A stretch of DNA of 64,000 bases from an uncultured virus (IMG/VR IMGVR_UViG_3300025646_000023) (IMGVR_UViG_3300025646_000023); one strand, 5' to 3'. Shown: positions 8,467-37,521, counted from the first letter of the stretch. The notes: generated by a model not told the origin, from the letters alone. Program-made: numbers and translations.

Positions 8467-10833
8467 ATGCCTACAAGAAACTCAGGTGGTGGAGGTTCTA
8501 GATCCGCTCCAGCACCTGCACCAAGGGCAGCTGCACCTCCTCCCCGTGTATCAGCCCCGGCTCCGCAAACTGCTTTTATCAGTACAGTTGCGTCTTCTCC
8601 ACAACAGTTTGTACCTCCTAAAACTCAAGGAGGTGGTAATGCTGCTAACCGAAACCAAGCACCAAAAAATCAAGGTGGCGGTGGTGGCAACCGAAACCAA
8701 GGTCCTAAGAACCAAGGTCCTAAGAACCAAGGTCCTAAGAACCAAGGTCCTAAAAACCAAGGCGGCGGTGGTGGCAATCGCCAAGGCGGTAACCGCTCAA
8801 CTCCAACTGCTGCTCCGCCTCCTAGTGCAGGACAAAATCGCCAAGGTCCTAAAAACCAAGGTCCTAAAAATCAGGGCCAAGGTCGTAAGAATCAAGGTGG
8901 TAGAGGACAAGGTGGCAAAGGTCAAGCCGGTGCTAATCCATTTGTTGACGTAGCAAATAGAACTGGAAACGACGGTCGTCAGCGTGGCCAAGGAGGTGGT
9001 CGTGCTGGTCAAGAACGTGGTGGCCAGGAAATGATGGGTCGTGGTCGCGGCCAGGGCCGTAAAGGCGGTGGCGGTCGTGATGATCGTCAAGGTCAAGGCG
9101 GTCGTGGTGGTCGTAACCGCGATGAAATGATGGGTCGTGGTCAAGGGCAGGACCGTGGCGGTCGTGGTCAAAGGCAGGACCGTGGCGGTCGTAACCGCGA
9201 TGAAATGATGGGTGGCGCAGGCGAAAACATGCGTGATCGCATGGGTCGTCGTAACCGCAACCGTCGTGATCGTGGTGGCGCAGCCGGTGAAGACCAAGGT
9301 TTTGATCAAGGTTCAGAAGATCAAGGTTTTGACCAAGGTTCAGAAGATCAAGGTTTTGATCAGGGTTCTGATGAAAGCTTTGATCAAGGTTCTGAAGATC
9401 AAGGTGGCGCAGAAGAAACTCCTCCTGATGCCAATGAATTCCTTGATAATTTCATTGAAGAAACTGGTGCAGGACAAGAAGAATCTCCTCAACCTGCCCA
9501 AGAAGAAGAGCAACCTACAAGGACTCAAGAAACAACCTCTACTCAATCGGAAGCACCTGCTTCTGGTGGAGGTGGCTTCGGTATCCAAGGTCTCCTCTCT
9601 GCAGAAGAACAGCAAAAAGCTGGCGGTAGTAATGCTGCTGCTGCATTAGCAGCTGCTCAAGCACGACGCCGCGCTTCTGGTAGCGATGGTGGCGGTTCTA
9701 CTCCTGCTCCTACACCTGCACCTGCTCCTACTCCAGGACCTAAAAGAGCTCCTACTCCTCCACCTAAACAAGGCCCCACACGTCAGCCTGGACAACAAGG
9801 TGGTCAAGCTGGTGGTCAAGCTGGTTCACAACCTGCAAGACAGCCTGCAAGACAGCCTGGACAAGGCGCTGCTGGTGGACAAGCTGGTGGCCAAGCTGGT
9901 GGCCAGGCTGGTGAAAGTTTTGATCAAGGCGGTACTGATCAGACAGGTACTGATCAAACTGGTACTGATCAAACTGGTGGCCAGGAAGAAGCTGGGGGTG
10001 GCCGTACCCGTCGTGAACGTCGTCAAGATCGCCGTGAAGAACGCCAGCAAGATCGTCAAGGTGGCGGTCGTCAAGATCGTCAAAGCGGTCGTGGTGGTCG
10101 CGGTGGTCAAGAACGCGGTGGCCAAGAACAAGAAGGCGGTCGCGGTGGCCGAAACCAAGGCCGTAAAGGTCAAGGTGGTAAAGGCCAAGGCGGTAAAGGA
10201 CAGGGCGGCAAAGGTCAAGGTGGAAAAGGTCAAGGTGGAAAAGGACAAGGCGGTAAGGGCCAAGGTGGCAAGAACCGCAACATGCCCTTTAACCCCATGG
10301 ACCAACCATCTAAAAAACAAGGTGGTAAGGGTCAGGGCAATAAGGGACAAGGCGGTAAAGGCCAAGGACCTAAAGGCCAAGGTGGCAAGAAACAAGGTGG
10401 AAAAGGTCAAGGTGGTAAAAACCAAACGACACAGTTTGACTTCTTGCCACAACCCGGTAAAAAACAAGGCGGCAAAAACCAAGGTTCTAAAGGCCAAGGT
10501 GGTAAAAACCAAGGTAGTAAAGGCCCTGGACCCAAAAATCAACCTGCTAAAAAGCAAGGTGGTAAAGCTCCCGCACCCAAGAACCAACCTCCTAAAAAAC
10601 AGAGTGGTAAAGGTGGTGTTGGAAGCCAAGCACCTAAGGGTCAAGGTGGAAAGGGTCAGGGTGGAAAAAACCAAGGACAAAAAGTTCCTTTCATTCCTCC
10701 CAAAAACCAGCCTCCTCAAAACCCACCGCCTAAGAGCCCACCTCCCAAGAGCCCCCCTCCTAAAGGGCAAGGTAACAAGGGCCAAGGTGGTAAAAACCAA
10801 GGTGGCAAAGGACAAGGCGGTAAGAAACGTTAA
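8467..10833 (+). CDS. 788-aa intrinsically disordered Gly/Gln/Lys/Arg-rich repeat protein
   Basis: Long open frame with in-frame tandem repeats (NQGPK, QGGKG, EDQGFDQGS, TDQTG); followed by a hairpin. Confidence 0.8.
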   Translation: MPTRNSGGGGSRSAPAPAPRAAAPPPRVSAPAPQTAFISTVASSPQQFVPPKTQGGGNAANRNQAPKNQGGGGGNRNQGPKNQGPKNQGPKNQGPKNQGGGGGNRQGGNRSTPTAAPPPSAGQNRQGPKNQGPKNQGQGRKNQGGRGQGGKGQAGANPFVDVANRTGNDGRQRGQGGGRAGQERGGQEMMGRGRGQGRKGGGGRDDRQGQGGRGGRNRDEMMGRGQGQDRGGRGQRQDRGGRNRDEMMGGAGENMRDRMGRRNRNRRDRGGAAGEDQGFDQGSEDQGFDQGSEDQGFDQGSDESFDQGSEDQGGAEETPPDANEFLDNFIEETGAGQEESPQPAQEEEQPTRTQETTSTQSEAPASGGGGFGIQGLLSAEEQQKAGGSNAAAALAAAQARRRASGSDGGGSTPAPTPAPAPTPGPKRAPTPPPKQGPTRQPGQQGGQAGGQAGSQPARQPARQPGQGAAGGQAGGQAGGQAGESFDQGGTDQTGTDQTGTDQTGGQEEAGGGRTRRERRQDRREERQQDRQGGGRQDRQSGRGGRGGQERGGQEQEGGRGGRNQGRKGQGGKGQGGKGQGGKGQGGKGQGGKGQGGKGQGGKNRNMPFNPMDQPSKKQGGKGQGNKGQGGKGQGPKGQGGKKQGGKGQGGKNQTTQFDFLPQPGKKQGGKNQGSKGQGGKNQGSKGPGPKNQPAKKQGGKAPAPKNQPPKKQSGKGGVGSQAPKGQGGKGQGGKNQGQKVPFIPPKNQPPQNPPPKSPPPKSPPPKGQGNKGQGGKNQGGKGQGGKKR

Positions 10834-10934: not shown

Positions 10935-11174
10935 ATGGCTCGCAACACTAAAATCCGCTTTCGTGGTAAACCATCTGAAATCCTGGAGCCTATTGACTTC
11001 CAGGGTTATTCCATTCAGTCCCTACGCCACGGCAACACCGGTCACATCCTCTACCGCTATCCCTCTAAAGAATACAATTGGGAACCATGCTGGGGTATGG
11101 ACCTGGAGACTGCTAAAAAATCTATTACTCGCTACCAAGAAAAACTAGAACTACAATCAGAAACAGAGTCATAA
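10935..11174 (+). CDS. hypothetical protein
   Basis: ORF track; extended -10 TGCTACCTT upstream. Confidence 0.65.
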   Translation: MARNTKIRFRGKPSEILEPIDFQGYSIQSLRHGNTGHILYRYPSKEYNWEPCWGMDLETAKKSITRYQEKLELQSETES

Positions 11175-11440
11175 TGCATATGGGACCAACGAAGAATGAA
11201 CTGATGGATGATCTTGCATTGTCCATCTATGAATACCTTCATAAGGAGGCAACTTCCTATCAAGGTTCTTTGTTGGTCCTAATGCCCATTACAAAAATTG
11301 CTAAAGAGTTTGATCGCAATCATCGGACTATCACCCGTCGCATCAGTGCTCTTAAAGCTGAAGGGTTGATCCAACCTATTATCAAAAAAGATTACGTTAC
11401 CCTCTATAGTATTGTTGACTGGGAAGAATCTGATGAATGA
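11174..11440 (+). CDS. winged helix-turn-helix DNA-binding protein
   Basis: ITKIAKEFDRNHRTITRRISALKAEGLI. Confidence 0.75.
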   Translation: MHMGPTKNELMDDLALSIYEYLHKEATSYQGSLLVLMPITKIAKEFDRNHRTITRRISALKAEGLIQPIIKKDYVTLYSIVDWEESDE

Positions 11441-12025: not shown

Positions 12026-12958
12026 GTGCCTGCTGTACTGGATGAAATCCGCGTAGATGCTCAGCTACTTGAAGAACTAGAGCGCAAGATTTATACCCCG
12101 TACTCTAAAACTGCATCGTATGAGCAGTTTTTGGACTATCGCTCTGAAGGAGATACTCGTTTAACGATTAACGGTAGTCGCCACTACAAGACGCCTTACG
12201 GTGCACTGCCTTCTGTCACCACAATCCTCTCAGCAACTGGTGGTAACAAAGCTGCCTTAGAACGTTGGGCTAAGAAAAATCCGGGTGGACGTGAGGCTGC
12301 TGCTGCTCGTGGTACCCGCGTTCACTCCCTTATGGAGGAGTATCTTCTTGGCATCAACAAGGATCCTGTCATTGACGATGAAGAAATTGCTGAGTTCTGG
12401 AAGGGCCTTCCTGAAAAACTTGACAAGCTGGATCGGATTGTCTGGGCAGAGAACCCTGCCAATCCTGATGATTTTAGTTGGACGATGGGTGGTGATGGTA
12501 TCTCCCGAGTCTGGCATCCAGGTGTTCACGAGGAAGAAACCTGGGGTTGGGCTGGTGCTCCTGACATCGTGGCAGAGTACAAAGGAAAGGTGGTTCTTGG
12601 CGATCTTAAAACCAGCAATGGTCTTTACTACAGTAAGTGGCCGGGACCTGAAACCCTCCGCAGTGAGTATGGAATGAAGCGTGCAGGCTTCATGAAGTAT
12701 CAAAAATGCATGATGCAGATGGGTGCCTATGCCATGGCACTGGAGCACACCATTGGGATCATCCCTGAAATCCTGATGATTTTTGTTGCAACTCGTGAGC
12801 GCTCTCAGGTTTTTGCGGTACAAGGCGGCACCATCGAGAAATACAAGAACAAGTGGCTAGAAGCTGTTAACAAGTATTACTCTGAGATCCTGCCAGCTCA
12901 AAATAAAACCGACATAGATATGGATGTGGTGGACGCGGATGCCGAAAAAACCGACTGA
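12026..12958 (+). CDS. PD-(D/E)XK exonuclease (Cas4/RecB-like phage nuclease)
   Basis: PSVTTIL, RGTRVH, AGAPD, DLKTS and QMGAY motifs. Confidence 0.85.
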   Translation: MPAVLDEIRVDAQLLEELERKIYTPYSKTASYEQFLDYRSEGDTRLTINGSRHYKTPYGALPSVTTILSATGGNKAALERWAKKNPGGREAAAARGTRVHSLMEEYLLGINKDPVIDDEEIAEFWKGLPEKLDKLDRIVWAENPANPDDFSWTMGGDGISRVWHPGVHEEETWGWAGAPDIVAEYKGKVVLGDLKTSNGLYYSKWPGPETLRSEYGMKRAGFMKYQKCMMQMGAYAMALEHTIGIIPEILMIFVATRERSQVFAVQGGTIEKYKNKWLEAVNKYYSEILPAQNKTDIDMDVVDADAEKTD

Positions 12959-13077
12959 GTGCAGGTGTCTGCCTCGTAAATTAAAGATACGAAGAAAAAC
13001 GGTGGATCCACTGGGCTACCTCATTAATACTGGCTACGCTGGCTCCGTCGTCTTCCCTTGACCTGCAATAAAAAACT

Positions 13078-15696
13078 GTGACGACCGCTACCCCAGAGCC
13101 CAAGCCACCTCATAAGCACCTCTCACCAGGGCAAATTAACCTTGATTTCATTCCGGTTGATTTCCCCCTAACGCCCCTGCAGGGCAAGAAAGCTTATCTT
13201 CCGGGCTGGACTCAGGATCCAAAAACAATATCTGAAATCCGTAAAGAACTAGAAGACGGTAGAGCAACAGGTGTTGGCCTCCTCTGTGGGCAGTGGAGCA
13301 ACGACCTTGCTCTTATTTTTGTTGATGTTGATGGGGAAGATGCCATCCCTGCTATTGAAAAACTAGGTGGTGGACCTATTGCAGATATCTTCCCACCAAC
13401 ACTGACGATCACTAGTGGGAAACCCGGTAAATTCCGGATGCTTTTCCGTGTTCCGCCGGATCGAATCCAGGAACTTCCGGATAAAGCAACTATCAAAGTT
13501 GATAAGGCGCCATGGGAAATCCTTTGGCGGTCTCGTCAAGGTGCACTCATGGGTGCTCACCCTGATACAGACGGCTATTCCACGACTGCTCACGGCGGTT
13601 TTGAATACGCTAAACAACTTCCTGAAATGCCAGAATGGCTTTATCAAGCCATCTCTCGTGCTTATCCCAGTAGTCGCTACCGTAAACGCACATCTCCTGC
13701 TGGTGCTGTTGTAACTCAAAGCATCACAATTAATTACGATAACGATTCCAAGTTCTATCTTGATTCTGCTATTGAAGAAGCTGTTTTATATCTTCAAGTT
13801 TTAGATCCTCAACGTGCTGATGATTATGAAGAGTGGCTTGCTGTTGGCATGTCACTCCATCAAATTGACGAAAGCCTTCTTCCTTCCTGGATTGAATGGT
13901 CTTCTCAATCTGATCACTTTGAAGACGGCGCTTGTGAAAAGAAATGGGAAAGCTTTGAACGTCTCCCAGGTGGACCTAATCCAGAAGGTGCACGTGGTTT
14001 AAAAACACTACGTGCTAAAGCAAAAGAAGATGGCTATATCGACATGGGAGGCTTTGTTGTTCCTTCCATTGACACAATTCGTAAGCAAGTTGGCGGAGAT
14101 GAAAACGCCATTGCTATCCAAGCTGATCAAAACGCACTCTTTCAGGAACTGTTTGGTGGTCAGTTTGATGAAAAAGACTTTGTTGACTTCCCGCCAGAAC
14201 TAGATCTCCCTGGTTTTGCTGGGCAGCCACTCCTACCTGGAAGCAAAAAACAGAAACAACCTGTAAGAAATCCACCCGCTTCTGAAATTGCCAACTTCAT
14301 CTCACCCATGTTCAACAAGAACGGGTGGCGTTATGACCCTAGATTTGATAGGTTCATGAAGTATGACAAGAATAGGGGTGTATGGAATGAGCAAGATCAT
14401 ACGAAAGATTTTAAACATGAGGTACAGTTTGTCCTCGGAAATACTTCTCTCCCTAATGGGTACACTTCTCATCTCGTTGCTGATGTGTGTGCTCTCTTGG
14501 AAGGGCACCTCACCGAGTACCAATGGAATGATGATCCCTCCCGTCTTGCATTCCGTAACGGTGTCTTCGATCTCGATACAAAAGAATTCCTAGAACATAA
14601 CCCTGAGCACTTTATTATCTGGGGTCTGGACATTGATTTCATTCCAGAAGCTGATCCAGGTCCTATCACCGAATGGTTATATCGTACTCAATACGGTGAT
14701 GAATCCCGTGTCAATGTTCTTCGTGCTTGGTTGCGTGCCTGTTTAGTGGGACGTGGCAACGAAATTCAACGTTTCTTTGAAGTGATTGGACCAGGTGGCC
14801 GTGGTAAATCCACCTTTGCCAACCTCTGCTGTGCTTTAGTTGGTAGTGGCAACTACGCCAGTACAACTCTCAACCAGTTGGAGCAGAGCCGTTTTGAACT
14901 TTCTTCCATTAAAGGGAAGCGCTTAACACTAATCAATGACTCTGAACGATACGGTGGTTCTGCTCAAACCTTTAAGGCTCTCACTGGTGGTGACTCCCTC
15001 CGCTATGAAGAGAAGCTAAAGCCCATCGGTGAACCCTTTGTGTACACCGGTATGGTCATGGTTGTTGCTAACGAGCCTATTCAAACCACCGATAACACCA
15101 GTGGTTTGAGCCGCCGTCGCTTAACAATTGAGTTCAATAGGCCCCTCTATGAACGTAATAGTGAAGCAAAGGACATGATCAAGATTGAACATGGTCGTGT
15201 TTCTGGTATCTGGAAGGACTACCTACCAGGTCTTGTTAACTGGGTGCTCGAAATGGATGAGCAAACCATGCGTCAGTACCTGCTAGATACCAATGAAATG
15301 GTGCCTGCACTGCGCCGCGTCCGCAATAACATCCTCCTCAACAGCAATAACCTGATTGAATGGTTGCAATCAGAAGTGGTTAGGGCAGATCATGTTACTG
15401 CTGTTGGTAAGAAGATTCCTAATGGCAATAAGGAAAGCAATGAACGTTATGTCAACAGCACTTATCATCTGTATCCCAGTTACTGTGAGTACTGCGAAGC
15501 AACAGGTTCTAAAGCTGTTGGCCAAAAGCGTTTCATCAACCTCTTGCTTGATTGCTGCAAGAACCAGCTAAACCTTGATGACGTTCGTACCTTTAGCAAA
15601 GGTGGTAAACCTTTTGTGAAAGGTCTTGCAATTCGTAATTCTGATCAGAAGTTTAAAGATCTTCCTACTATCCTTCCAGAAGGTAAAGACGAGTAA
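13078..15696 (+). CDS. primase-polymerase with PriCT-2 domain and D5-like SF3 helicase
   Basis: N-terminal VDVDG Prim-Pol motif; YEEWLAVGMSLH..WS PriCT-2; FRNGVFDL; Walker A GPGGRGKST; FKALTGGD. Confidence 0.92.
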   Translation: MTTATPEPKPPHKHLSPGQINLDFIPVDFPLTPLQGKKAYLPGWTQDPKTISEIRKELEDGRATGVGLLCGQWSNDLALIFVDVDGEDAIPAIEKLGGGPIADIFPPTLTITSGKPGKFRMLFRVPPDRIQELPDKATIKVDKAPWEILWRSRQGALMGAHPDTDGYSTTAHGGFEYAKQLPEMPEWLYQAISRAYPSSRYRKRTSPAGAVVTQSITINYDNDSKFYLDSAIEEAVLYLQVLDPQRADDYEEWLAVGMSLHQIDESLLPSWIEWSSQSDHFEDGACEKKWESFERLPGGPNPEGARGLKTLRAKAKEDGYIDMGGFVVPSIDTIRKQVGGDENAIAIQADQNALFQELFGGQFDEKDFVDFPPELDLPGFAGQPLLPGSKKQKQPVRNPPASEIANFISPMFNKNGWRYDPRFDRFMKYDKNRGVWNEQDHTKDFKHEVQFVLGNTSLPNGYTSHLVADVCALLEGHLTEYQWNDDPSRLAFRNGVFDLDTKEFLEHNPEHFIIWGLDIDFIPEADPGPITEWLYRTQYGDESRVNVLRAWLRACLVGRGNEIQRFFEVIGPGGRGKSTFANLCCALVGSGNYASTTLNQLEQSRFELSSIKGKRLTLINDSERYGGSAQTFKALTGGDSLRYEEKLKPIGEPFVYTGMVMVVANEPIQTTDNTSGLSRRRLTIEFNRPLYERNSEAKDMIKIEHGRVSGIWKDYLPGLVNWVLEMDEQTMRQYLLDTNEMVPALRRVRNNILLNSNNLIEWLQSEVVRADHVTAVGKKIPNGNKESNERYVNSTYHLYPSYCEYCEATGSKAVGQKRFINLLLDCCKNQLNLDDVRTFSKGGKPFVKGLAIRNSDQKFKDLPTILPEGKDE

Positions 15697-15845: not shown

Positions 15846-16094
15846 CTATACTCCTTGAACAACTCCATACTTGTTCATTAAATTAGGTACTGCCATCTTG
15901 CGCCGTTGCTCATAACCTGGATACAACCGCTCCATCTCTAATCGAAACATCTCTGGTGTAACAGCTGGTCCATACCCTGGCTTCTCAATTTCAAAACTAG
16001 GTGAACCAGCAATTAAAACTTCCTCAACGATTGGGCTTTTGCTATAGCTCTTTAAAAAGCCCAAGGCGTTAGGGAAATCATTATCCATCATCAT
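15846..16094 (-). CDS. hypothetical protein (FLxxY motif)
   Basis: ORF track. Confidence 0.6.
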   Translation of the reverse strand: MMMDNDFPNALGFLKSYSKSPIVEEVLIAGSPSFEIEKPGYGPAVTPEMFRLEMERLYPGYEQRRKMAVPNLMNKYGVVQGV

Positions 16095-16096
16095 AA

Positions 16097-16804
16097 TTAG
16101 ATGCCGCCGTAAAGGAACTGCTGTACCCGATTACGGATGGGTAACTTAACAGTCGTTGCTTTGTCTGCTTGCTGTGCAGTAGCTGCCTGTTGTGCAGCTT
16201 GTGCCGCCACGGGATTCAAAGTTTCCATCGTGTAGCCGCCTTCACCTTGAGCACGGGTACCGAGATCGCCCATCTGCACTTCTTCTACAGGTTGCGTACC
16301 AGCAGCAAAACCACCGGTTTGCGGGAACATGTTCGCAAGCAGCGGGTTGTAGGCACCAATTGCACCACCGGCTTGGCCCATAGGAGTCTGGCCGTACTTC
16401 TGCATCCAGATCTGCATACCAAGATCTTTTGCTTCTTGAGTCTTCTTTTGTCCAATCAGGTTTCCGTATTGCGCAAGCTGAGAACGATACTCATCACTCC
16501 CGCTACGGTCAACAGTACCTTGAGGAGTTAAACCGGTAACAATTGTTGTATTAGGTGCAACTGTACCAGCAGACAATACTTGAACTGGTTTTGGATCAGT
16601 TAAGGGACCTTTTAATGGTTCAACTAAAGGACGATAACCTTCTGCACGTAATTGCGCATCAGTAGGTGCAAGTGTTGCTGCATTAGCACCACGACCAGCA
16701 AAGAAAGCGCCAGGACCAAACAAGAATCCAGCACCTGGAAAACTTGGGTTCCACTGAGCTTTTTGTGCACGTTTGGAACCGCGCTGGCCGCCTTGATATG
16801 CCAT
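16097..16804 (-). CDS. Gln/Ala/Gly-rich hypothetical protein, possibly virion-internal
   Basis: ORF track; composition like the late-region proteins. Confidence 0.65.
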   Translation of the reverse strand: MAYQGGQRGSKRAQKAQWNPSFPGAGFLFGPGAFFAGRGANAATLAPTDAQLRAEGYRPLVEPLKGPLTDPKPVQVLSAGTVAPNTTIVTGLTPQGTVDRSGSDEYRSQLAQYGNLIGQKKTQEAKDLGMQIWMQKYGQTPMGQAGGAIGAYNPLLANMFPQTGGFAAGTQPVEEVQMGDLGTRAQGEGGYTMETLNPVAAQAAQQAATAQQADKATTVKLPIRNRVQQFLYGGI

Positions 16805-16858
16805 TGTTTATAAGAAATCCTTTCATACAATAGTAACACTGGGAAATAGAAATTCCTT

Positions 16859-17044
16859 ATGTCACTTATTCAAACTCTGCCGCACGGTACAACTATTGAA
16901 TTGCTGGACGATAAACACGGTAACCAAGTACATCGTGTTTGTACTCCAGGGGGTTCGATGTGTCGCTACGTGGAACCTTATCACTGCGCTATCACCTACG
17001 CAGAGCAATATGATCAATACTATGTAGAAGGTCCCAAGGAATAG
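16859..17044 (+). CDS. hypothetical protein
   Basis: ORF track. Confidence 0.55.
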   Translation: MSLIQTLPHGTTIELLDDKHGNQVHRVCTPGGSMCRYVEPYHCAITYAEQYDQYYVEGPKE

Positions 17045-17103
17045 GGCTTCGTTTGCTTTAGTTGGATTATGGGGTACAGATGTTCTGCTCAGTACCCCGT
17101 CAA

Positions 17104-17341
17104 ATCCATTGCGCCCCAGGGGTTCTCAAGGGTGGCCTGCGCACGAACGAGTATGTCTTTTTTTTCATGGTTTCACTTAAGACGTAGTGGTAAGTGGTTA
17201 TTAGGTGACAGTCACATCTACTCGTTCATGTGACGGACAGCTAAGAACCACTTAGAACTCCTTATAGAGTGATATAGGCTTTTTTTGAACGCACTCGTTC
17301 GTTCGTTTGCCTTCCCTGAAAACCCTTGACCTGCAAGGGAT
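17104..17341. repeat. ~240-bp degenerate gap-free palindrome; candidate origin or protein-binding site
   Basis: At least five inverted blocks all share the axis at 17222/17223. Confidence 0.8.
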
Positions 17342-17888
17342 CTCAGCCTATCCTGAAGCCCTCTTCTCATCCCCTAACTTGGATTACTTCAAATTCTTTA
17401 GAGATGAGTACCTAACTGGAGAAGATCTCCTCTCATTTGCTACCAGTCTTAGGTTGTGTCAAGACGAACTCGGAATCACTTCATGTTGGTGCATTAAGCG
17501 GATCAACCACCCCTCACTGAAGTACTTCACCAGTTCACACCCCTCACGCCCCCTCTTCAAAGGGAAAGATGCCCGCCTCCTGGCAATGGCACTGGCCAAC
17601 AAGTACGCTCCAGCTGATGGCCCTGACATGGTGGTGCGCTATTCGTTTTGCAACTCACAGCACTGCATCAATCCCACCCACTACTTCTTTGGCAGTACTC
17701 AGGACGTGTGGATGCAGAATGCAAAACGCAAAGGACGTGAAATCAATTCATCCATTGTGGAGGCCATTAAGCAACAAAGAACCAGTAACAGAAGTGAGTG
17801 GACCTATGAGAAGCTAAGTAAACACTACAAGCTTCCATATCATGTCATTAGAAGAATCTGCAATGAAGGAGCCTACTCCAATGATTGA
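17307..17888 (+). CDS. HNH-like (zinc-binding loop) protein with C-terminal HTH; true start probably downstream
   Basis: SCWC; CNSQHCINPTHY; WTYEKLSKHYKLPYHVIRRI helix-turn-helix. Confidence 0.65.
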   Translation: MPSLKTLDLQGISAYPEALFSSPNLDYFKFFRDEYLTGEDLLSFATSLRLCQDELGITSCWCIKRINHPSLKYFTSSHPSRPLFKGKDARLLAMALANKYAPADGPDMVVRYSFCNSQHCINPTHYFFGSTQDVWMQNAKRKGREINSSIVEAIKQQRTSNRSEWTYEKLSKHYKLPYHVIRRICNEGAYSND

Positions 17889-18495
17889 AGAAGAGAATAA
17901 GGCGCTAACCGAAAACTTAGATCACATCTTTAATTGCAATACAAAAAACTATGAGGACAAAGTAAAAGAATTAAAAGAAGAAAACGTTAATCGCTATTGT
18001 CTATGGCATAAGAAAGGTCATCCAGGACACCACAACAACTTTGGTTTGATGGGTGAATGCAAGGACTGCATGGCAGAAATTGAGAAAGGGCGTTGCTCTG
18101 TTGACGTTTGTAACTTTGACATGGACATTTACTGGACAGTCCGTAACTTTTGGTTGAAGGTCGATGTCAAAGGTCCTGATGAATGCTGGAAATGGCTGGG
18201 AGGTACGAAGAAAAACGGACAAGAAACGGTTGCTTACATGCCAAGTCCCTTTCACTCCGCTAAAACACAGTCAGCTTCTCGCGTCGCATTCTGGTTAAGC
18301 CGTGGTTACACGGGTCGTTATCGCATCTTCCACCAGGAAGGCTGTGATATTACCTGCTGTAACCCCTTACATTTGCGTATAAAGGAGTTAACATTAACAT
18401 CTCAACCCACTGACATAGAGACAGTCAATCTGAGTTATGGCAACATCTTCGACCACGCAAAAGCCAACCTCGAAAAGAAGTCAAGTTATTTCTAG
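17881..18495 (+). CDS. HNH-family homing endonuclease-like protein
   Basis: FWLKVDVKGPDECWKWLG, ASRVAFWL, CDITCCNPLHL. Confidence 0.75.
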   Translation: MIEEENKALTENLDHIFNCNTKNYEDKVKELKEENVNRYCLWHKKGHPGHHNNFGLMGECKDCMAEIEKGRCSVDVCNFDMDIYWTVRNFWLKVDVKGPDECWKWLGGTKKNGQETVAYMPSPFHSAKTQSASRVAFWLSRGYTGRYRIFHQEGCDITCCNPLHLRIKELTLTSQPTDIETVNLSYGNIFDHAKANLEKKSSYF

Positions 18496-18754
18496 TAACC
18501 ACCACTTAACTACAAAAAGTTACGCTGGTTTTGTATTCATTGATGGCAAGAATCATACAACAGAATGGTTTGATACCATCGAAGAAGCAACGTTAGAACT
18601 ACGTTGTTTAGAGAAGAAACTGAATTATGAGTTGATTGAAACTATTGAGATGGAAGGTTTCTATCCAGAACGCGCTAAAATTATTGAAGAGCGTTACCAA
18701 GCCAGTGGCCGTACAAACGGTTTGTATACTGGTTTATGTTTAAAAGATGGCTAG
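18437..18754 (+). CDS. hypothetical protein
   Basis: ORF track. Confidence 0.5.
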   Translation: MATSSTTQKPTSKRSQVISSNHHLTTKSYAGFVFIDGKNHTTEWFDTIEEATLELRCLEKKLNYELIETIEMEGFYPERAKIIEERYQASGRTNGLYTGLCLKDG

Positions 18755-19430
18755 GTTTCTTACAACATTACCCGTTAACTTAGGTTTTGTAAATCTTGGT
18801 ACTGTCGAAGCTTATCCAACTGGGGGTAGTGGACCTACTGCATACGGTCCGACTTCCTACTACGGTAGCGATCCGTTGCCTCCGTACGTGGGAGATTCTG
18901 TTAATAACCCTCTTAATCTGGGCGATTTCACGCCTGTATACAAAGCGATAAGGATCTCAAATACACATGGTGGTTTGTCACGTCGTCAAACCACCTTTTA
19001 TTCTTTCAAATTAATCAAACGACGTTCAATCAAATTAACGCAGAATTTTAGCCAGTTTGCTACAACTCAAAAGACAAATCGTAATACACTGGTTGCATTT
19101 TATAAAGTAGAAGATGGTAACAATCGTCGTGAATTAGTTGTTAATGATGATGGATATGTAGTACCAGAAGCATCAGTTATTGATGGCGGAGATGGTGATC
19201 AGTTTCCAGAATTTAGACCTGACTACCCAACATTAATGTTGGATCCAGGTGAATATGTCTTCTTAATTACAAATGATATTCGTTATTTAGAAACAACTTA
19301 CTCTATTACCCTAGAAGGTTTTGTTACCGACTGGCGTTACGTTGCTGAAGATGTAGAAGACTCCTTAGAATTTGGTCTGCTAACTGAAGGTGTAGAGAGT
19401 ACGTTTGATTTTGGTACTCTTACAACTTGA
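18747..19430 (+). CDS. hypothetical beta-rich protein (PPC-like domain possible)
   Basis: FYSFKL...LDPGEYVFLI...YSITL pattern. Confidence 0.6.
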   Translation: MARFLTTLPVNLGFVNLGTVEAYPTGGSGPTAYGPTSYYGSDPLPPYVGDSVNNPLNLGDFTPVYKAIRISNTHGGLSRRQTTFYSFKLIKRRSIKLTQNFSQFATTQKTNRNTLVAFYKVEDGNNRRELVVNDDGYVVPEASVIDGGDGDQFPEFRPDYPTLMLDPGEYVFLITNDIRYLETTYSITLEGFVTDWRYVAEDVEDSLEFGLLTEGVESTFDFGTLTT

Positions 19431-25969: not shown

Positions 25970-26052
25970 GGGAGTGTGGCGGAATTGGTCTACGCTGCGG
26001 ATTTAAAATCCGCTGGTCTTTGACCTTGTGGGTTCGAGTCCCACCGCTCCTA
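25970..26052 (+). tRNA. trnL: tRNA-Leu (anticodon TAA)
   Basis: Cloverleaf: anticodon arm gcgga-tttaaaa-tccgc, long variable arm, GGTTCGAGTCC T-arm; CCA not encoded. Confidence 0.9.
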
Positions 26053-26055
26053 TCT

Positions 26056-26130
26056 CGGGATGTAGCTCAGTTTGGTCAGAGTGCTGCGTTTGGGACGCAG
26101 ATGCCGCAGGTTCAAATCCTGTCATCCCGA
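26056..26130 (+). tRNA. trnP: tRNA-Pro (anticodon TGG)
   Basis: cgggatg/catcccg acceptor stem, ctgcg-tttggga-cgcag anticodon arm, GGTTCAAATCC T-arm. Confidence 0.92.
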
Positions 26131-26334
26131 TTCTTCATCTGCAGGGTCATACTCTGCATCTTCTAATAGTTTCAAAATGAAGTGGTGGATTCGATCCGTC
26201 ACCCACCGTAGATCTTCATCAGAAATATCACAGATAATTGCGTCCAAACGGAGTTCACGCGAGGGTTCTCGAACATGATCTGCAATTAACTCCAGTGCTC
26301 GATAACGACCTGGCGTGAACTCTCCCAACATCAA
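26122..26334 (-). CDS. hypothetical protein
   Basis: ORF track; stop lies antisense within the tRNA-Pro 3' end. Confidence 0.6.
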   Translation of the reverse strand: MMLGEFTPGRYRALELIADHVREPSRELRLDAIICDISDEDLRWVTDRIHHFILKLLEDAEYDPADEESG

Positions 26335-26575: not shown

Positions 26576-27820
26576 TTACTTTAAGTCAATCCACCAGCCC
26601 GTACCTTCTCCTTCTACCATCCAGCGCCTATAGAAGAAGTTGTAGGTATAGAGCACTTCTTTACCATTGGTTGTTTTGTATTCGCCAGTGTAGTTGTCAA
26701 GTTGTCCCCAGGGGTCATGGACAATGAACTTCTTGGCTTCATCCTGGTAACCAATCACACAGATCCAGTGACCACTACCTGTGGGGGCATTGGCAGGGCC
26801 TTTGTGGAGGATACCAACTGGACAGGGTACATCTTCATCGAGGCGTTGCTTGAGCTCTTCGATGGTGCCATTCTGTTTGAATTTAGGACTAAAGCCAAGG
26901 CTTTGGAGAACTTTGAGTTGAGTGGCCACTTCAACAGTGTCACCAATAGCAAAAACCTTTTTAAGATAATCATTATCAGTACTGATGCAACCAGGGCGTA
27001 GGTACATGGCAGCCATGGCGCAAGCAGAGGAGAAGCAAGTACGGCTTGCATCTCTATAGTTATCACGCTGTGATTGATAGGGAACAGCTAATTTAACGCC
27101 ATCATATTTAATCTCTGCTTTATCTTTAGGGTGATTAAGAACACCTTTTAATCCATACCAGTGTTCATCAAAAACCCACCAGGTACCTAGGTTATAAGGG
27201 AATACAAGCTGTGTATGTTTATCTTTTTTAGCAATAACTTCTACACCTTTATAGCTGCGATCTTCTTTGATGCGCACCTTTTGATCCGGCCTTAGATCAC
27301 CACTGGGAATTGGTTCTTTTTTAAGAAAGGTATCAACAGTACATGTAATATCAATTTCATTTTGCTTCTGTTTCTCTGCTCGACCTGAAGTAAACAGTAG
27401 AACTTCTTTCTTTCGCCGCTCTACTAAACCTGGGAGAGTGACACCATGATCACCCTTAACCCACTTAGGTAACTCTTCTTCTGCAACTTTATTAGGATCT
27501 TCGTTGTTATTAAGACGCTTCCTTAAGGTAGAACGCTCTAATGCGCCAGCACCACAGTTGTATGTGAAGGAGACTAAGGCATCAAACTGTGCCTGGTTAA
27601 TCCTAGCAACAACCAGATCTTGTACGGCCCGTTCAAACTGCGCTACATCAGCACGGAGAAACCGATCAGCTTGGTCTTCGCTGATGGTCATATTGGCTTT
27701 TACATCAGGGCCAGTGTGTCCCCAGCCAATAGTCCAGACGCCAGCTGGACAAAGGTAGCTCTTTAAGCGGAGTCCTTCAAATTCTTTGATAAGTGCTAGG
27801 CCAGCATCGGAGATCCGCAT
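26576..27820 (-). CDS. endolysin: GH24 lysozyme fused to a C39-like peptidase
   Basis: GLALIKEFEGL..Y.CPAGVWTIGWGHT, FDALVSFTYN, GLVERRKKE; then VPYQSQRDN..TCFSSACAM, GHW.CVIGY, HDPWG. Confidence 0.9.
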   Translation of the reverse strand: MRISDAGLALIKEFEGLRLKSYLCPAGVWTIGWGHTGPDVKANMTISEDQADRFLRADVAQFERAVQDLVVARINQAQFDALVSFTYNCGAGALERSTLRKRLNNNEDPNKVAEEELPKWVKGDHGVTLPGLVERRKKEVLLFTSGRAEKQKQNEIDITCTVDTFLKKEPIPSGDLRPDQKVRIKEDRSYKGVEVIAKKDKHTQLVFPYNLGTWWVFDEHWYGLKGVLNHPKDKAEIKYDGVKLAVPYQSQRDNYRDASRTCFSSACAMAAMYLRPGCISTDNDYLKKVFAIGDTVEVATQLKVLQSLGFSPKFKQNGTIEELKQRLDEDVPCPVGILHKGPANAPTGSGHWICVIGYQDEAKKFIVHDPWGQLDNYTGEYKTTNGKEVLYTYNFFYRRWMVEGEGTGWWIDLK

Positions 27821-34659: not shown

Positions 34660-37521
34660 TCAGAAGCCAGAATAGAAGTAAGCTTTAGAGCGAGAGAAAC
34701 CTGCTGGAGGATCTGTCCAGCTTAAAGTTCCACTGCCATCGGTTGAAAGAAGTTGACCTAATGTACCATCAGCTGTTGGTAATGTATAGGTTGTAGACCC
34801 TGCAGCAGCTGCTGGAGCAAGACCGACATAGCCAGAAGTTGAACCTGAAAGGCGCAGAGTCCCTTTGATATCAACTTTAGAGCCAGGTGTAGCGGTACCA
34901 AAACCAGAATTGCCAGAACTATCAACTCTAAATTGTTCAGATCCTTCTGTTGTAACAACAAAACGGCCATCAATACCAGTGTCAATAACCTCTGCTTTTG
35001 TGTTACCTACTGTAATCTCGGTTGGTGTTGCAGTTTCCTGCGGTGCTGAATCAACCCATTGCGAAGTATTTCCATCATTGTAGTAAATATAAGTGCGTCC
35101 GCCTACAGTATCAAACCAAAAGTCTCCAGGATTAGGACTAGATGGAGGTGTGTCTGCAGTATAAACAATAGGTACTCCTTGCGGAGAAGCATCAACCCAC
35201 TGAGTTGTATTTCCATCGTTGTAATAAAAATAAGTTCTTCCCCCAACAGAGTCATACCAAATAGCACCATCATTAGGTGCTGAAGGCGGAGTATCACTTG
35301 CAACAATAGAAATTAAACCTTGAGGTGCAATATCAACCCACTGTGCACCGTCTGGATCATCGTAGTAAACATAAGTACGCCCACCAACGGAGTCATACCA
35401 AAGATCACCGTGATTTGGACTTACAGGTGCAGTGTCACTTGTTGTAACAGAAGCACCACCTCCTCCTCCCGTAGCCCAAGAGAGAGCACCAAAACCATTA
35501 GTGCTTAATACTTGACCAGCAGTACCATCAGAATCTGGAAGAGTCCATGTAACGTTGCTTGCAATAGTTGCAGGTGCTTGCAAAGCTACCCAGTTACTGC
35601 TATCCGCATCTGCAAAACGAAGGTCAGATTGTGCATTGAGTGTTACGTCACCAGTTAAACTACCACCAGCTTTTGGTAACGCAGCATTGGCTAGATCATA
35701 AGCAGTCTTAACACTATTAGGCGTTGCTGCTTTTGTAGTACTTGTACTGCTTGTTGAATCTTCTAGTTGAACAGCACCTTTCTGAGCTGTTGTTGCATCC
35801 TGAATACTGATATCAGGTGTTGTGCCGCCAGTGCTTGCAAGTGGTGATGTTGCCGTAACAGCAGTAATGGTGCCGCCAGAGCCGTGAGCACTGATCGTAA
35901 TTGTGCCATCACCATTGGTAATCGTGACACCAGTAGAAGCAGTTAATGTTGCTTTAGCTAAAGTCCCGTCTGTTTTACCAATTAAAAGTTGGCCATCAGT
36001 ATAAGTAGTTTGACCAGTACCACCGTAACCTGTGGCTAAAGTAGTGCCTTGCCAGGTACCAGAACTGATTGTTCCTACACTTGTTAAGCTGGAAGAAACA
36101 ACAGCACTGCCAAGGCTTGTTGCATCAAGAACTTTTACATTATTGATTCGATATTCTTTAGTTGAAACAAGATCAATATGTTCACTAAATGTCCAAGCAT
36201 CAGTTGCATTTAACCATTCAATAGTTTTATCAGTCGATCCTTTAAGTATGATTCCACCTGCATCTGCTGTAGAATCAGTCGGAGTAGGAACAACACCTAA
36301 TTCAATATTCTTATCTTTAACAAGAAGTGTTGTTGAATCAATTGTTGTGGTTGTTCCCTGAACTGTTAGATTACCAGGGATATTAATATTACCTGCTGCA
36401 TCAGCACTTAAACGAATAGCACCGCCAGTAACAAGTGCAATTTCATTTGCACCTGGACGTAATAGGCCGGTATCAGCATCGCCATCAAAAGCGTAACCAG
36501 GTGTAGAAGGACTTGTAGAATCGTCACCTAAGATGGCACCTGTCATAGTGCCGCCTGCTTTTGGTAATGCAGCAATGCCTAAGTCATAAGCAGTTTTAAC
36601 ACTGTTTGGTGTTGCTGCTGTTGTAGTACTAGTACTAGAGGTAGAATCTTCTAATTGAACAACACCTTTTTGTACTGTTGTACCATCAGCAACATTAAGA
36701 GTGACTGAACCATCACCATTAACAACACTAATATTCGTTCCAGCTGTTAAGGTTGACTTGGCTAGAGTTCCGTCTGTTTTACCAATTAACAGTTGACCAT
36801 CAGTGTAAGAAGTGTGGCCTGTGCCCCCATAGCCATGAGTAACTGTTGAAGCTTGCCAAGTACCTGTTGTAAGGGTACCTACACTAGTTAAACTAGAAGC
36901 AACAACAGCACTACCTAAACTTGTTGCATCAAGAACTTTAGTTCCGTTAATTCTATATTCTTTGCCACTAGCAACACTAAGATGACCGGTTAAAGAGCTG
37001 TCGCCAGAAGCATCAATAACAAACTGACTAACACCGTTAGTTGCAAATCCAAGTTGATCAGCACCTGGAGAATAAATGCCAGTATTAGTATCACCGGTAA
37101 AAGTAATACTTGGTGAAGCTGCAGTTCCTGCCGCAAAACTTACGGGGCCGGCAAGACTAATTGATCCTGTAACAGATAAGTTACCACCAACTAAAACATT
37201 ATTAGCAAAACTTGCGGCGCCACTGGAATCAAGACTTAAGCGAATAACACCGCCAGTTACAAAAGCAAGTTGATCAGAACCAGGGCTAATAAGTCCTGTA
37301 TTGGGATCAGATGCAAATTTTACTGCACAGTTTGTAACGCTACCTGTAGATAGCGCCATGTTGCTACCGTCTTCTCGCAGAAGAGGATAACCACCTTGAG
37401 TAAATCCATCGTGAACAACACAAGTATCTTTATCGATATCAACAGTGACTTCACCAACTGCACCAGTGAAGAGTGCGGTTTCACCTGTTGTTCCGCGACG
37501 AAATTGTACTTGTGTAGCCAT
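34660..37521 (-). CDS. long tail fibre protein (Mtd-like N-terminus) with internal duplications
   Basis: MATQVQFRRGTT..F.GA.GE.TVD..K; two AATPNSVKTAYD repeats; three GD.WYDSVGGRTY repeats. Confidence 0.85.
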   Translation of the reverse strand: MATQVQFRRGTTGETALFTGAVGEVTVDIDKDTCVVHDGFTQGGYPLLREDGSNMALSTGSVTNCAVKFASDPNTGLISPGSDQLAFVTGGVIRLSLDSSGAASFANNVLVGGNLSVTGSISLAGPVSFAAGTAASPSITFTGDTNTGIYSPGADQLGFATNGVSQFVIDASGDSSLTGHLSVASGKEYRINGTKVLDATSLGSAVVASSLTSVGTLTTGTWQASTVTHGYGGTGHTSYTDGQLLIGKTDGTLAKSTLTAGTNISVVNGDGSVTLNVADGTTVQKGVVQLEDSTSSTSTTTAATPNSVKTAYDLGIAALPKAGGTMTGAILGDDSTSPSTPGYAFDGDADTGLLRPGANEIALVTGGAIRLSADAAGNINIPGNLTVQGTTTTIDSTTLLVKDKNIELGVVPTPTDSTADAGGIILKGSTDKTIEWLNATDAWTFSEHIDLVSTKEYRINNVKVLDATSLGSAVVSSSLTSVGTISSGTWQGTTLATGYGGTGQTTYTDGQLLIGKTDGTLAKATLTASTGVTITNGDGTITISAHGSGGTITAVTATSPLASTGGTTPDISIQDATTAQKGAVQLEDSTSSTSTTKAATPNSVKTAYDLANAALPKAGGSLTGDVTLNAQSDLRFADADSSNWVALQAPATIASNVTWTLPDSDGTAGQVLSTNGFGALSWATGGGGGASVTTSDTAPVSPNHGDLWYDSVGGRTYVYYDDPDGAQWVDIAPQGLISIVASDTPPSAPNDGAIWYDSVGGRTYFYYNDGNTTQWVDASPQGVPIVYTADTPPSSPNPGDFWFDTVGGRTYIYYNDGNTSQWVDSAPQETATPTEITVGNTKAEVIDTGIDGRFVVTTEGSEQFRVDSSGNSGFGTATPGSKVDIKGTLRLSGSTSGYVGLAPAAAAGSTTYTLPTADGTLGQLLSTDGSGTLSWTDPPAGFSRSKAYFYSGF

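Follow-up and report, generated by a model that had tools for sequence, protein, structure and literature searches.

We describe here an imperfect, two-fold symmetric palindrome of 240 bp, at positions 17104-17341 of the uncultured virus sequence IMGVR_UViG_3300025646_000023, which was analysed as a single stretch of 64,000 nucleotides (hereafter the window). The palindrome is a real, deeply conserved, non-coding module in uncultured freshwater phages, and it is most likely a cis-acting symmetric array of predicted protein-binding sites on double-stranded DNA. Our preferred reading of its role, held tentatively at a probability of roughly 0.45 and argued from analogy, is that it may be a replication origin of the kind found in staphylococcal pathogenicity islands (SaPIs), pRN1 and P4, serving an upstream gene whose product combines an archaeo-eukaryotic primase (AEP) with a superfamily 3 (SF3) helicase. 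The original prediction, made from the sequence alone, had offered either a bidirectional origin or a resolution/recombination site; the origin is the half of that proposal which the analogy with SaPI, pRN1 and P4 best supports, and nothing was found in support of the other half.

Each possible axis of the window was scored for mirrored Watson-Crick matches. The axis at 17222/17223 pairs 74 of 120 mirrored positions without a gap (z 8.3 against all axes) and has no equal in the 64 kb, the runners-up reaching 55 and 54 matches. An inverted-repeat search recovered two ungapped arm pairs on this same axis, one formed by 17104-17152 and 17293-17341 (49 nt, 71% complementary) and the other by 17173-17217 and 17228-17272 (45 nt, 76% complementary). 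Five pairs of inverted blocks had been proposed to share one axis with no insertions or deletions, each pair having coordinates that sum to 34445, and both direct reading and the inverted-repeat search bear this out; the pair at 17191 and 17241 is correctly placed and is inexact by one mismatch, an A against the expected C partner. The T-tracts reported at mirror positions of the same strand are likewise present. Folded as RNA, the palindrome reaches -90.8 kcal/mol on the + strand (z -5.0) and -97.8 kcal/mol on the - strand (z -5.7), and as DNA -47.9 kcal/mol on the + strand (z -6.0), and in each case none of 200 shuffles equalled it. No tandem repeats were found at the site. The parts of the element are as follows, with a strand given where one applies.

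17104-17341: the whole imperfect palindrome, from the axis scan and the inverted-repeat search.
17106-17122: left outer box, a degenerate copy (2 mismatches) of the small dyad CCCTTG-N5-CAAGGG; the box is conserved in an alignment of 92 arms.
17143-17152, + strand: left iteron box ACGAACGAGT, with the hexamer ACGAAC, which changes by clade in both arms.
17158-17165, + strand: T8 tract, conserved in position and flipping strand between lineages.
17171-17179: left box TTTCACTTA, containing TCACT at 17173-17177 (sequence and arm alignment).
17191-17204: left box TAAGTGGTTATTAG, with the core GGTT, the best-conserved stretch of the arms (sequence and arm alignment).
17211-17217: left inner box GTCACAT; the inner pair is broken in the L002 lineage.
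17218-17227: central 10 nt, asymmetric, holding TACTCGTTC, a reverse copy of the left iteron box (inverted-repeat search).
17228-17238, + strand: right inner box ATGTGAC, with the inner iteron ACGGAC at 17233-17238 (sequence and motif search).
17241-17254: right box CTAAGAACCACTTA (sequence and inverted-repeat search).
17268-17272: right box AGTGA (sequence).
17280-17286, + strand: T7 tract, at the mirror position of the T8 tract and on the same strand (sequence).
17293-17306, - strand: right iteron box, two overlapping copies of ACGAAC at 17297-17302 and 17301-17306 (motif search).
17323-17339: right outer box, the perfect small dyad CCCTTGACCTGCAAGGG and the sole perfect copy in the window, overlapping the -35 hexamer of a promoter.

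The likeness between the left iteron box and the centre extends to an inverted repeat of 17133-17153 with 17219-17239 (76% complementary). Separately, a 14-nt exact repeat, CCCTTGACCTGCAA, occurs within the right outer box (17323-17336) and at 13055-13068, just before the start of the primase-helicase gene; the latter copy was dropped as a candidate second site since it is not conserved in relatives.

Relatives carry the element at the same place. Loci were gathered with the primase as query (15 viral loci), with an alignment of the protein encoded downstream of the palindrome (11 viral and 10 metagenome loci) and with an alignment of the 61-aa protein encoded immediately upstream of it (50 viral loci), and all sources pooled gave 46 distinct versions of the element. 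Of the 50 loci gathered with the 61-aa protein, 49 have their strongest palindrome axis (half-width 90 or 60) between that gene and the downstream-gene homologue, the exception (L053) being a record that ends 44 nt past the 61-aa gene, and the conservation in relatives on which the original prediction had staked its proposal is thereby present. The z values of the relatives' axes are mostly 5.5-10.3, with lower values of 4.1-5.0 in L063, L068-L071, L077, L088 and L089. All 14 distinct upstream regions found via the downstream protein have the palindrome axis 156-172 nt before its start codon, and synteny of the block made up of the 61-aa gene, the palindrome and the four following genes is kept throughout the loci found via the 61-aa protein. 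The 61-aa gene is absent from the cultured phages of the collection searched, a search for DNA similarity of the window to GenBank phages found none, and, judged by the primase, its nearest cultured relative is Synechococcus phage S-EIVl, at 35% identity over 98% of the protein.

The two arms evolve together. The spacers between the conserved blocks had been taken to be free, and this we would withdraw, as the arms change in concert at variable positions. In the 92-arm alignment each left arm is 0.44-0.69 identical to its own right arm, and in 23-45 of the 45 other lineages the orthologous arm is less similar to it than that (median orthologue identity 0.38-0.50); it is from this that we conclude that the change is concerted. 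An RNAalifold alignment of 14 close sequences (12 distinct rows) yielded 41 pairs, of which 15 carry compensatory double changes, compared with 9.7 +/- 1.5 pairs with double-sided changes in shuffles (0/500 as high) and 2-6 when partners were slid; 93.6% of the cells in this alignment are paired, vs 83.1% in shuffles. The 92 arms also share an ordered series of conserved boxes, beginning with the outermost pair GATCCnTTGC and GCAAGGGTTT and running inward through AACGnAC, an A/T tract, TTTCAC and TAGkGGTTmT (with GGTT at its core) to TGTnnGTnAnA, which adjoins the centre; L085, L076 and L043 have extra repeats of 13-15 nt adjoining the centre.

The boxes include a hexamer iteron, which differs by clade, being ACGAAC in the window and ACGGAC, ACGTAC or ATGTAC elsewhere, with outer and inner copies alike. 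Many lineages carry their clade's own hexamer again near the centre, pointing the other way. The window contains 25 copies of ACGRAC, four of them inside the 164 bp of 17143-17306; the exact hexamers of its element start at 17143 (+), 17233 (+), 17297 (-) and 17301 (-), with one exact copy left of the axis. Relative to the axis, L035 has ACGGAC at -80(+), -16(-), +10(+) and +74(-), the + - + - layout of clade B; L054 has ACGAAC at -80(+), +10(+), +73(-) and +77(-), which are all four copies in its 5.2-kb locus; and L085 has ACGTAC at -103(+), -24(-) and -11(-). Because inner and outer iteron copies are not mirror partners, the fact that they change together points to a protein that reads the sequence and not to pairing alone.

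The genes and signals on which the weighing of functions turns are listed next.

13078-15696, + strand: primase-helicase of 872 aa, with Prim-Pol, PriCT_2, D5_N and an SF3 P-loop (Pfam); candidate initiator.
16859-17044, + strand: conserved 61-aa Cys/His-containing gene immediately upstream of the palindrome (relatives).
17326-17354, + strand: sigma70-like promoter, with TTGACC at 17326-17331, a 17-nt spacer and TATCCT at 17349-17354 (promoter scan).
17379-17888, + strand: downstream gene of 169 aa starting with TTG at 17379; a Cys/His-rich HNH-like module and a three-helix helix-turn-helix (HTH).
17842-18495, + strand: second HNH-like gene, fused with the previous one in eight other lineages.
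11174-11440, + strand: 88-aa HTH protein, a possible binder, with a weak PHROG match annotated as a replication initiation protein (E 8e-06).

The candidate initiator has Pfam matches to Prim-Pol, PriCT_2, D5_N and DUF5906, and its residues 484-689 match PriRep5 of SaPI5 (7OLA; E 4.7e-15). Its gene lies 1.4 kb upstream of the element on the same strand, a distance given in the original prediction and borne out by the gene map, and in 4/4 informative distant lineages it lies 2.4, 3.1, 4.0 and 5.2 kb upstream of the axis, again on the same strand (a fifth distant record ends too early for this distance to be taken). Here the genes between the two are a pair on the - strand (15846-16804) and the 61-aa gene on the + strand. 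The C-terminal 183 aa of the primase-helicase (residues 690-872) were modelled by AlphaFold2 at low confidence (predicted local distance difference test score, pLDDT, 55), and in the VIA comparison this model gave mostly winged-helix matches, all below Z 8, including P4 alpha (1KA8; Z 5.4, root-mean-square deviation 3.1, 80 residues aligned), RFX (Z 5.6) and Orc1/Cdc6 (Z 4.9). The winged-helix likeness of the model, which takes in the origin-binding domain of P4, is suggestive only, a hint that a DNA-binding domain may lie there. Residues 321-470 of the same protein are hypervariable, with an identity to L003 of 0.71 vs 0.92-0.97 elsewhere in the protein and falling to 0.33-0.43 in distant lineages. 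A comparison of element divergence with the separate regions of the primase-helicase was set aside as uninformative, the correlation (rho 0.72-0.79 everywhere, 8 lineages) reflecting phylogeny only.

We infer protein binding, helicase loading and origin function along the following lines. The AEP-primase/SF3-helicase would bind both arms, possibly aided by the adjacent protein with its HTH and modules resembling a His-Me finger, and two helicase rings would then load facing opposite ways, as has been proposed for SaPI Rep/PriRep, pRN1 ORF904 and P4 alpha. Being symmetric, the region may also be able to extrude a stem-loop or cruciform. Since the right outer box shares sequence with the -35 hexamer, occupancy of the element would also set the transcription of the downstream gene. 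No origin has so far been described for these uncultured freshwater phages, which are distant relatives of S-EIVl; the element supplies a precise origin candidate, and its 46 natural variants with co-varying boxes make a ready-made mutational series for binding studies.

Several observations weigh against an origin. The element does not adjoin the primase-helicase gene, and its spacing is fixed to the promoter of the downstream gene; its divergence, too, tracks the downstream gene best, which fits an operator equally well. Cumulative GC skew, put forward earlier as a check, lends no support: in the window the minimum at 17687 is local and weak, a deeper one lies near 8.9 kb, and the relatives G006 and G004 have no minimum at the axis, G006 having its global maximum about 1 kb from it. 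Exact hexamers number 3-5 here against the 6-12 iterons that PMC9371898 gives for SaPIs, and the AT content of the centre across lineages is 0.60-0.66 (mean 0.66, 46 lineages) vs a background of 0.54, a mild enrichment only. S-EIVl lacks the palindrome and both flanking genes. Finally, concerted change of the arms is also expected of a functional hairpin, and at variable arm positions hairpin or cruciform pairing may be compatible with the changes seen in the sequences.

The rival that survives best, which we nonetheless regard as unlikely, is that the palindrome is an operator or enhancer-like array controlling only the promoter at 17326-17354 and playing no part in replication, the downstream product (an HTH and two His-Me-finger-like modules) binding the boxes as a dimer or oligomer and so regulating its own gene. 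The promoter has a fixed position at the edge of the element: in 40/46 lineages the pattern TTGACn-N16-18-TAnnnT occurs on the + strand, 87-128 nt to the right of the axis. The window's only perfect small dyad lies across the promoter's -35 hexamer. This also amends the original prediction: the outermost right block is more than a half-site, being the -35 region of a conserved promoter. A mirrored leftward promoter, on the - strand left of the axis, was found in 0/46 lineages; the outer ends of the element are thus functionally asymmetric, and an operator would leave its left half with no promoter to regulate. It would, moreover, be a 200-bp symmetric array centred about 140 bp upstream of the start site, far above known autoregulatory operators in size.

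The downstream protein is itself a candidate DNA binder. Its start had been placed at 17307, and this we revise to the TTG at 17379: in relatives the stretch equivalent to 17307-17379 is interrupted by in-frame stops, a TTG or GTG start lines up with 17379, and the N-terminus that follows, beginning MDY, is conserved. The two HNH-like genes, read in different frames, share 47 nt (17842-17888) and correspond to a fused single open reading frame (ORF) of about 380 aa in L061, L067, L068, L070, L074, L077, L084 and L086; the overlap is either a split gene or a frameshift site. Both halves are HNH-like by sequence (PHROG, E 4.4e-09; actinophage HNH genes, E 2e-07), neither reaches a Pfam HNH family, and 10 of 41 members of the downstream-protein family match an HTH-type Pfam family. 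In the AlphaFold2 model of the fused form (pLDDT 89), residues 115-169 are predicted as a three-helix HTH resembling the DNA-binding domains of transposases and resolvases (Z 5.0-6.0), a confident prediction that speaks for an operator; residues 217-344 of the model weakly resemble NFI and Smad MH1 (Z 4.5-4.6) and, by Foldseek, I-PpoI (E 0.4). Foldseek on the downstream protein returned no match at E<=0.001.

The evolutionary rates can be read either way. Spearman correlation of element divergence with that of each neighbouring protein over 36 lineages gave a rho of 0.63 for the 17379-17888 product and 0.60 for the 17842-18495 product, compared with 0.45 for a 105-aa protein (18437-18754), 0.39 for the 61-aa protein and 0.25 for a 227-aa protein (18747-19430), and the downstream protein is also the fastest-evolving of the block (mean distance 0.58 vs 0.28-0.40). 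Both results count in favour of an operator and its reader. The two highest values may reflect co-evolution or mere linkage, and the correlation with the downstream gene can be plain linkage because rho falls with distance on that side. An operator would also leave unexplained the synteny with the primase-helicase and the likeness to a palindrome in Bordetella phage BIP-1, which does not have this downstream gene. The origin and operator readings are compatible with each other and not exclusive, and regulation and origin function coexist in iteron plasmids. Were the element an operator only, it would still be an unusually large symmetric control region.

It is improbable, in our estimation, that the downstream product is a domesticated homing-endonuclease-like protein (an HTH with two His-Me-finger-like modules, which may have lost any nuclease activity) that acts as an origin-recognition factor with the outer dyad as self-operator. 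Such a protein would read the co-evolving boxes of the 240-bp palindrome, the outer dyad being also its own operator, and the extruded or melted element would be handed to the AEP-primase/SF3-helicase, loading as two opposed rings. NFI at the adenovirus origin would provide an analogy for a His-Me-finger-like origin reader. This arrangement, if true, would amount to a two-protein origin system with a His-Me-finger reader, and the element prompts one to ask whether a nuclease-like DNA reader is involved.

We give still less credence to a structured RNA, in which the palindrome would form the 3' end of the 61-aa gene transcript and its long hairpin would be a terminator, a stabiliser or an RNase III site. 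Both strands fold strongly as RNA, the arms co-vary with G-U pairs included, and in the window's clade and three other lineage groups the inner hairpin has a T run after it on the + strand. All 46 distinct versions fold (-63 to -111 kcal/mol over 250 nt), with a slight advantage to the + strand (mean minimum free energy -88.5 vs -85.7 on the - strand; p 0.048, the samples not being independent). Against this, wobble pairs have no clear strand bias, the 46 elements averaging 13.3 G.T mirror pairs vs 12.2 A.C (p 0.089, the samples again not independent). The A/T tract keeps its place across the 46 lineages and does not keep its strand: read left..right on the + strand, its polarity is T..A in 12, T..T in 11, none..A in 8, T..none in 5, none..none in 5, none..T in 3, A..A in 1 and A..T in 1. 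An intrinsic terminator was rejected on similar grounds; the T7 tract begins 7 nt past the inner stem, the T run has turned into an A run in 12/46 lineages and is absent in others, and the terminator scan did not call the large hairpin. The element sits upstream of the conserved promoter and outside that promoter's transcript. No covariance model of Rfam 15 matched at gathering score in the window, the single match at E<=1 within 16700-17600 was at chance level and outside the palindrome, and no tRNAs were found at the site. Coding is no better placed: the mirrored ORFs at 17069-17233 (+) and 17218-17370 (-) were rejected because none of the frames is kept open from lineage to lineage (open in 21, 10 and 4 of 70 arms). 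Taken with the covariation of the hexamer at copies that are not pairing partners, the lack of strand bias, the tract flips and the want of a frame or an Rfam family favour a DNA-level function as judged from sequence. The earlier preference for a protein-binding array over a one-strand RNA hairpin is supported indirectly by the wobble pairs, the tract flips and the hexamers. Cruciform extrusion of both strands may also be compatible with these DNA-level signs.

Least probable of all is a cruciform or hairpin cut or resolved by the adjacent HNH-like proteins for processing, recombination or homing: the arms do stay complementary on both strands, the adjacent genes do match HNH endonuclease families and the model does weakly recall I-PpoI, but the genes hold the same syntenic place across deep divergence, which sets them apart from mobile homing endonucleases, the 64 ORFs scanned yielded no Pfam family of recombinases or integrases, the centre in the window is asymmetric over 10 nt, unlike a protelomerase-type site, the terminase lies 35 kb away, and the fold matches include the non-catalytic relatives NFI and Smad MH1. 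Other candidates were ruled out in passing. A miniature inverted-repeat transposable element or other small mobile inverted repeat does not fit an element that is single-copy in the 64 kb, syntenic in 49/50 loci and diverging together with its flanks; a mobile element or attP does not fit a single-copy, syntenic element with no integrase found among the ORFs scanned; and a protelomerase (tel) site does not fit the asymmetric centre (17218-17227), with no telomere-resolvase Pfam family among the 64 ORFs scanned.

The window, a phage-like contig, is organised as a + strand cluster over 1-22 kb, which includes genes for a dCMP deaminase, SSB, the 88-aa HTH protein, an exonuclease (12026-12958) and the primase-helicase, and a - strand region from 22.6 kb onward with lysis, tail and terminase genes. 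Several features of it deserve mention in their own right. The non-coding stretch between exonuclease and primase-helicase genes at 12960-13010 hardly varies between lineages with proteins 77-94% identical, and may be a structured or regulatory element. A weaker second palindromic signal is centred at 16607 (54/120 matches, z 4.5) within the - strand gene 16097-16804, with a signal of z 5.4 at the equivalent place in L002; the product of this gene resembles an S-EIVl protein encoded among structural genes. The ORF of 788 aa at 8467-10833, of high GC content and strong AT skew, has no family match and is overlapped by long ORFs in other frames; the - strand of this region holds seven copies of ACCTTGAC and near variants between 9086 and 10647, and the ORF probably encodes a repetitive protein. 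At 34660-37521 (-) lies the gene for a 953-aa tail-fibre protein with an Mtd_N domain (major tropism determinant, Bordetella phage BPP-1) and Phage_fiber_2 repeats, and adjacent genes for tRNA-Leu(TAA) and tRNA-Pro(TGG) occupy 25970-26131.

How does the candidate origin compare with known ones? A literature search for cyanophage replication-origin palindromes found none. The origins of iteron plasmids (pPS10, F, P1) have an inverted-repeat operator at the rep promoter, and the present element is similar in that its putative initiation repeats adjoin a dyad overlapping the promoter of an adjacent DNA-binding gene. It differs in that the adjacent protein has HTH and His-Me-finger-like modules and is neither Rep_3 nor a winged-helix Rep, and in that the repeats are mirrored here and direct in the plasmids. 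P4 shares a multifunctional primase with an SF3 helicase and short binding motifs repeated in both orientations, and the C-terminal part of our primase-helicase, in its low-confidence model, may weakly resemble the P4 origin-binding winged helix. The P4 primase, however, is of the Toprim type, and the repeats of P4 fall into two distinct clusters, ori and crr, instead of a single palindrome.

In SaPIs, according to PMC9371898, the origin lies shortly past rep and consists of penta- or hexamer iterons divided equally between the two sides of an AT-rich centre; at least two iterons per side point in opposite directions, and two hexamers are proposed to load there. Set beside that account, the two initiators share a helicase core (the PriRep5 homology), the window's primase-helicase being of the Rep/PriRep type (D5_N and SF3); both origins, if ours is one, are on the strand of the initiator gene and downstream of it; and in both, hexamer repeats flank the centre on both sides and point in opposite directions, with two per side in clade B and a single exact copy on the left in the window. 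The SaPI origin as described there follows immediately after rep, whereas the present element is 1.4-5.2 kb away with variable genes between, and the SaPI centre is AT-rich, whereas in the window the AT content at -5..+5 is 0.5 vs a background of 0.54. The present element, moreover, is palindromic over nearly all of its 240 bp, has additional conserved boxes and contains a promoter.

The remaining parallel is with pRN1. In PMC4234260 the Sulfolobus plasmid pRN1 is described as needing a 100-nt stem-loop downstream of its AEP-primase/SF3-helicase gene, conserved in structure and not in sequence, and a similar stem-loop is proposed for BIP-1, whose replication protein has PriCT_2. The replication proteins of pRN1 (ORF904) and BIP-1 share with ours an AEP primase, a helical or PriCT_2 domain and an SF3 helicase, and the present element is likewise a large potential stem-loop downstream of the gene, its structure kept as the sequence drifts. 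The pRN1 stem-loop, about 100 nt long and without iterons, is found within 166 bp of the gene, whereas the present element is about 240 bp long, has conserved boxes, lies farther away and is tied to the promoter of another gene. In the BIP-1 record (L094, 26570-26750) we found a palindrome at 26658 (43/60 matches, z 6.8), some 0.5 kb beyond the end of the replication gene, with two tandem copies of a 9-mer and a T6 tract in either arm; it may be the stem-loop of the published figure. Should the origin reading prove right, the element would extend to a deep phage lineage the published proposal that AEP-primase/SF3-helicase replicons start at large stem-loops (PMC4234260).

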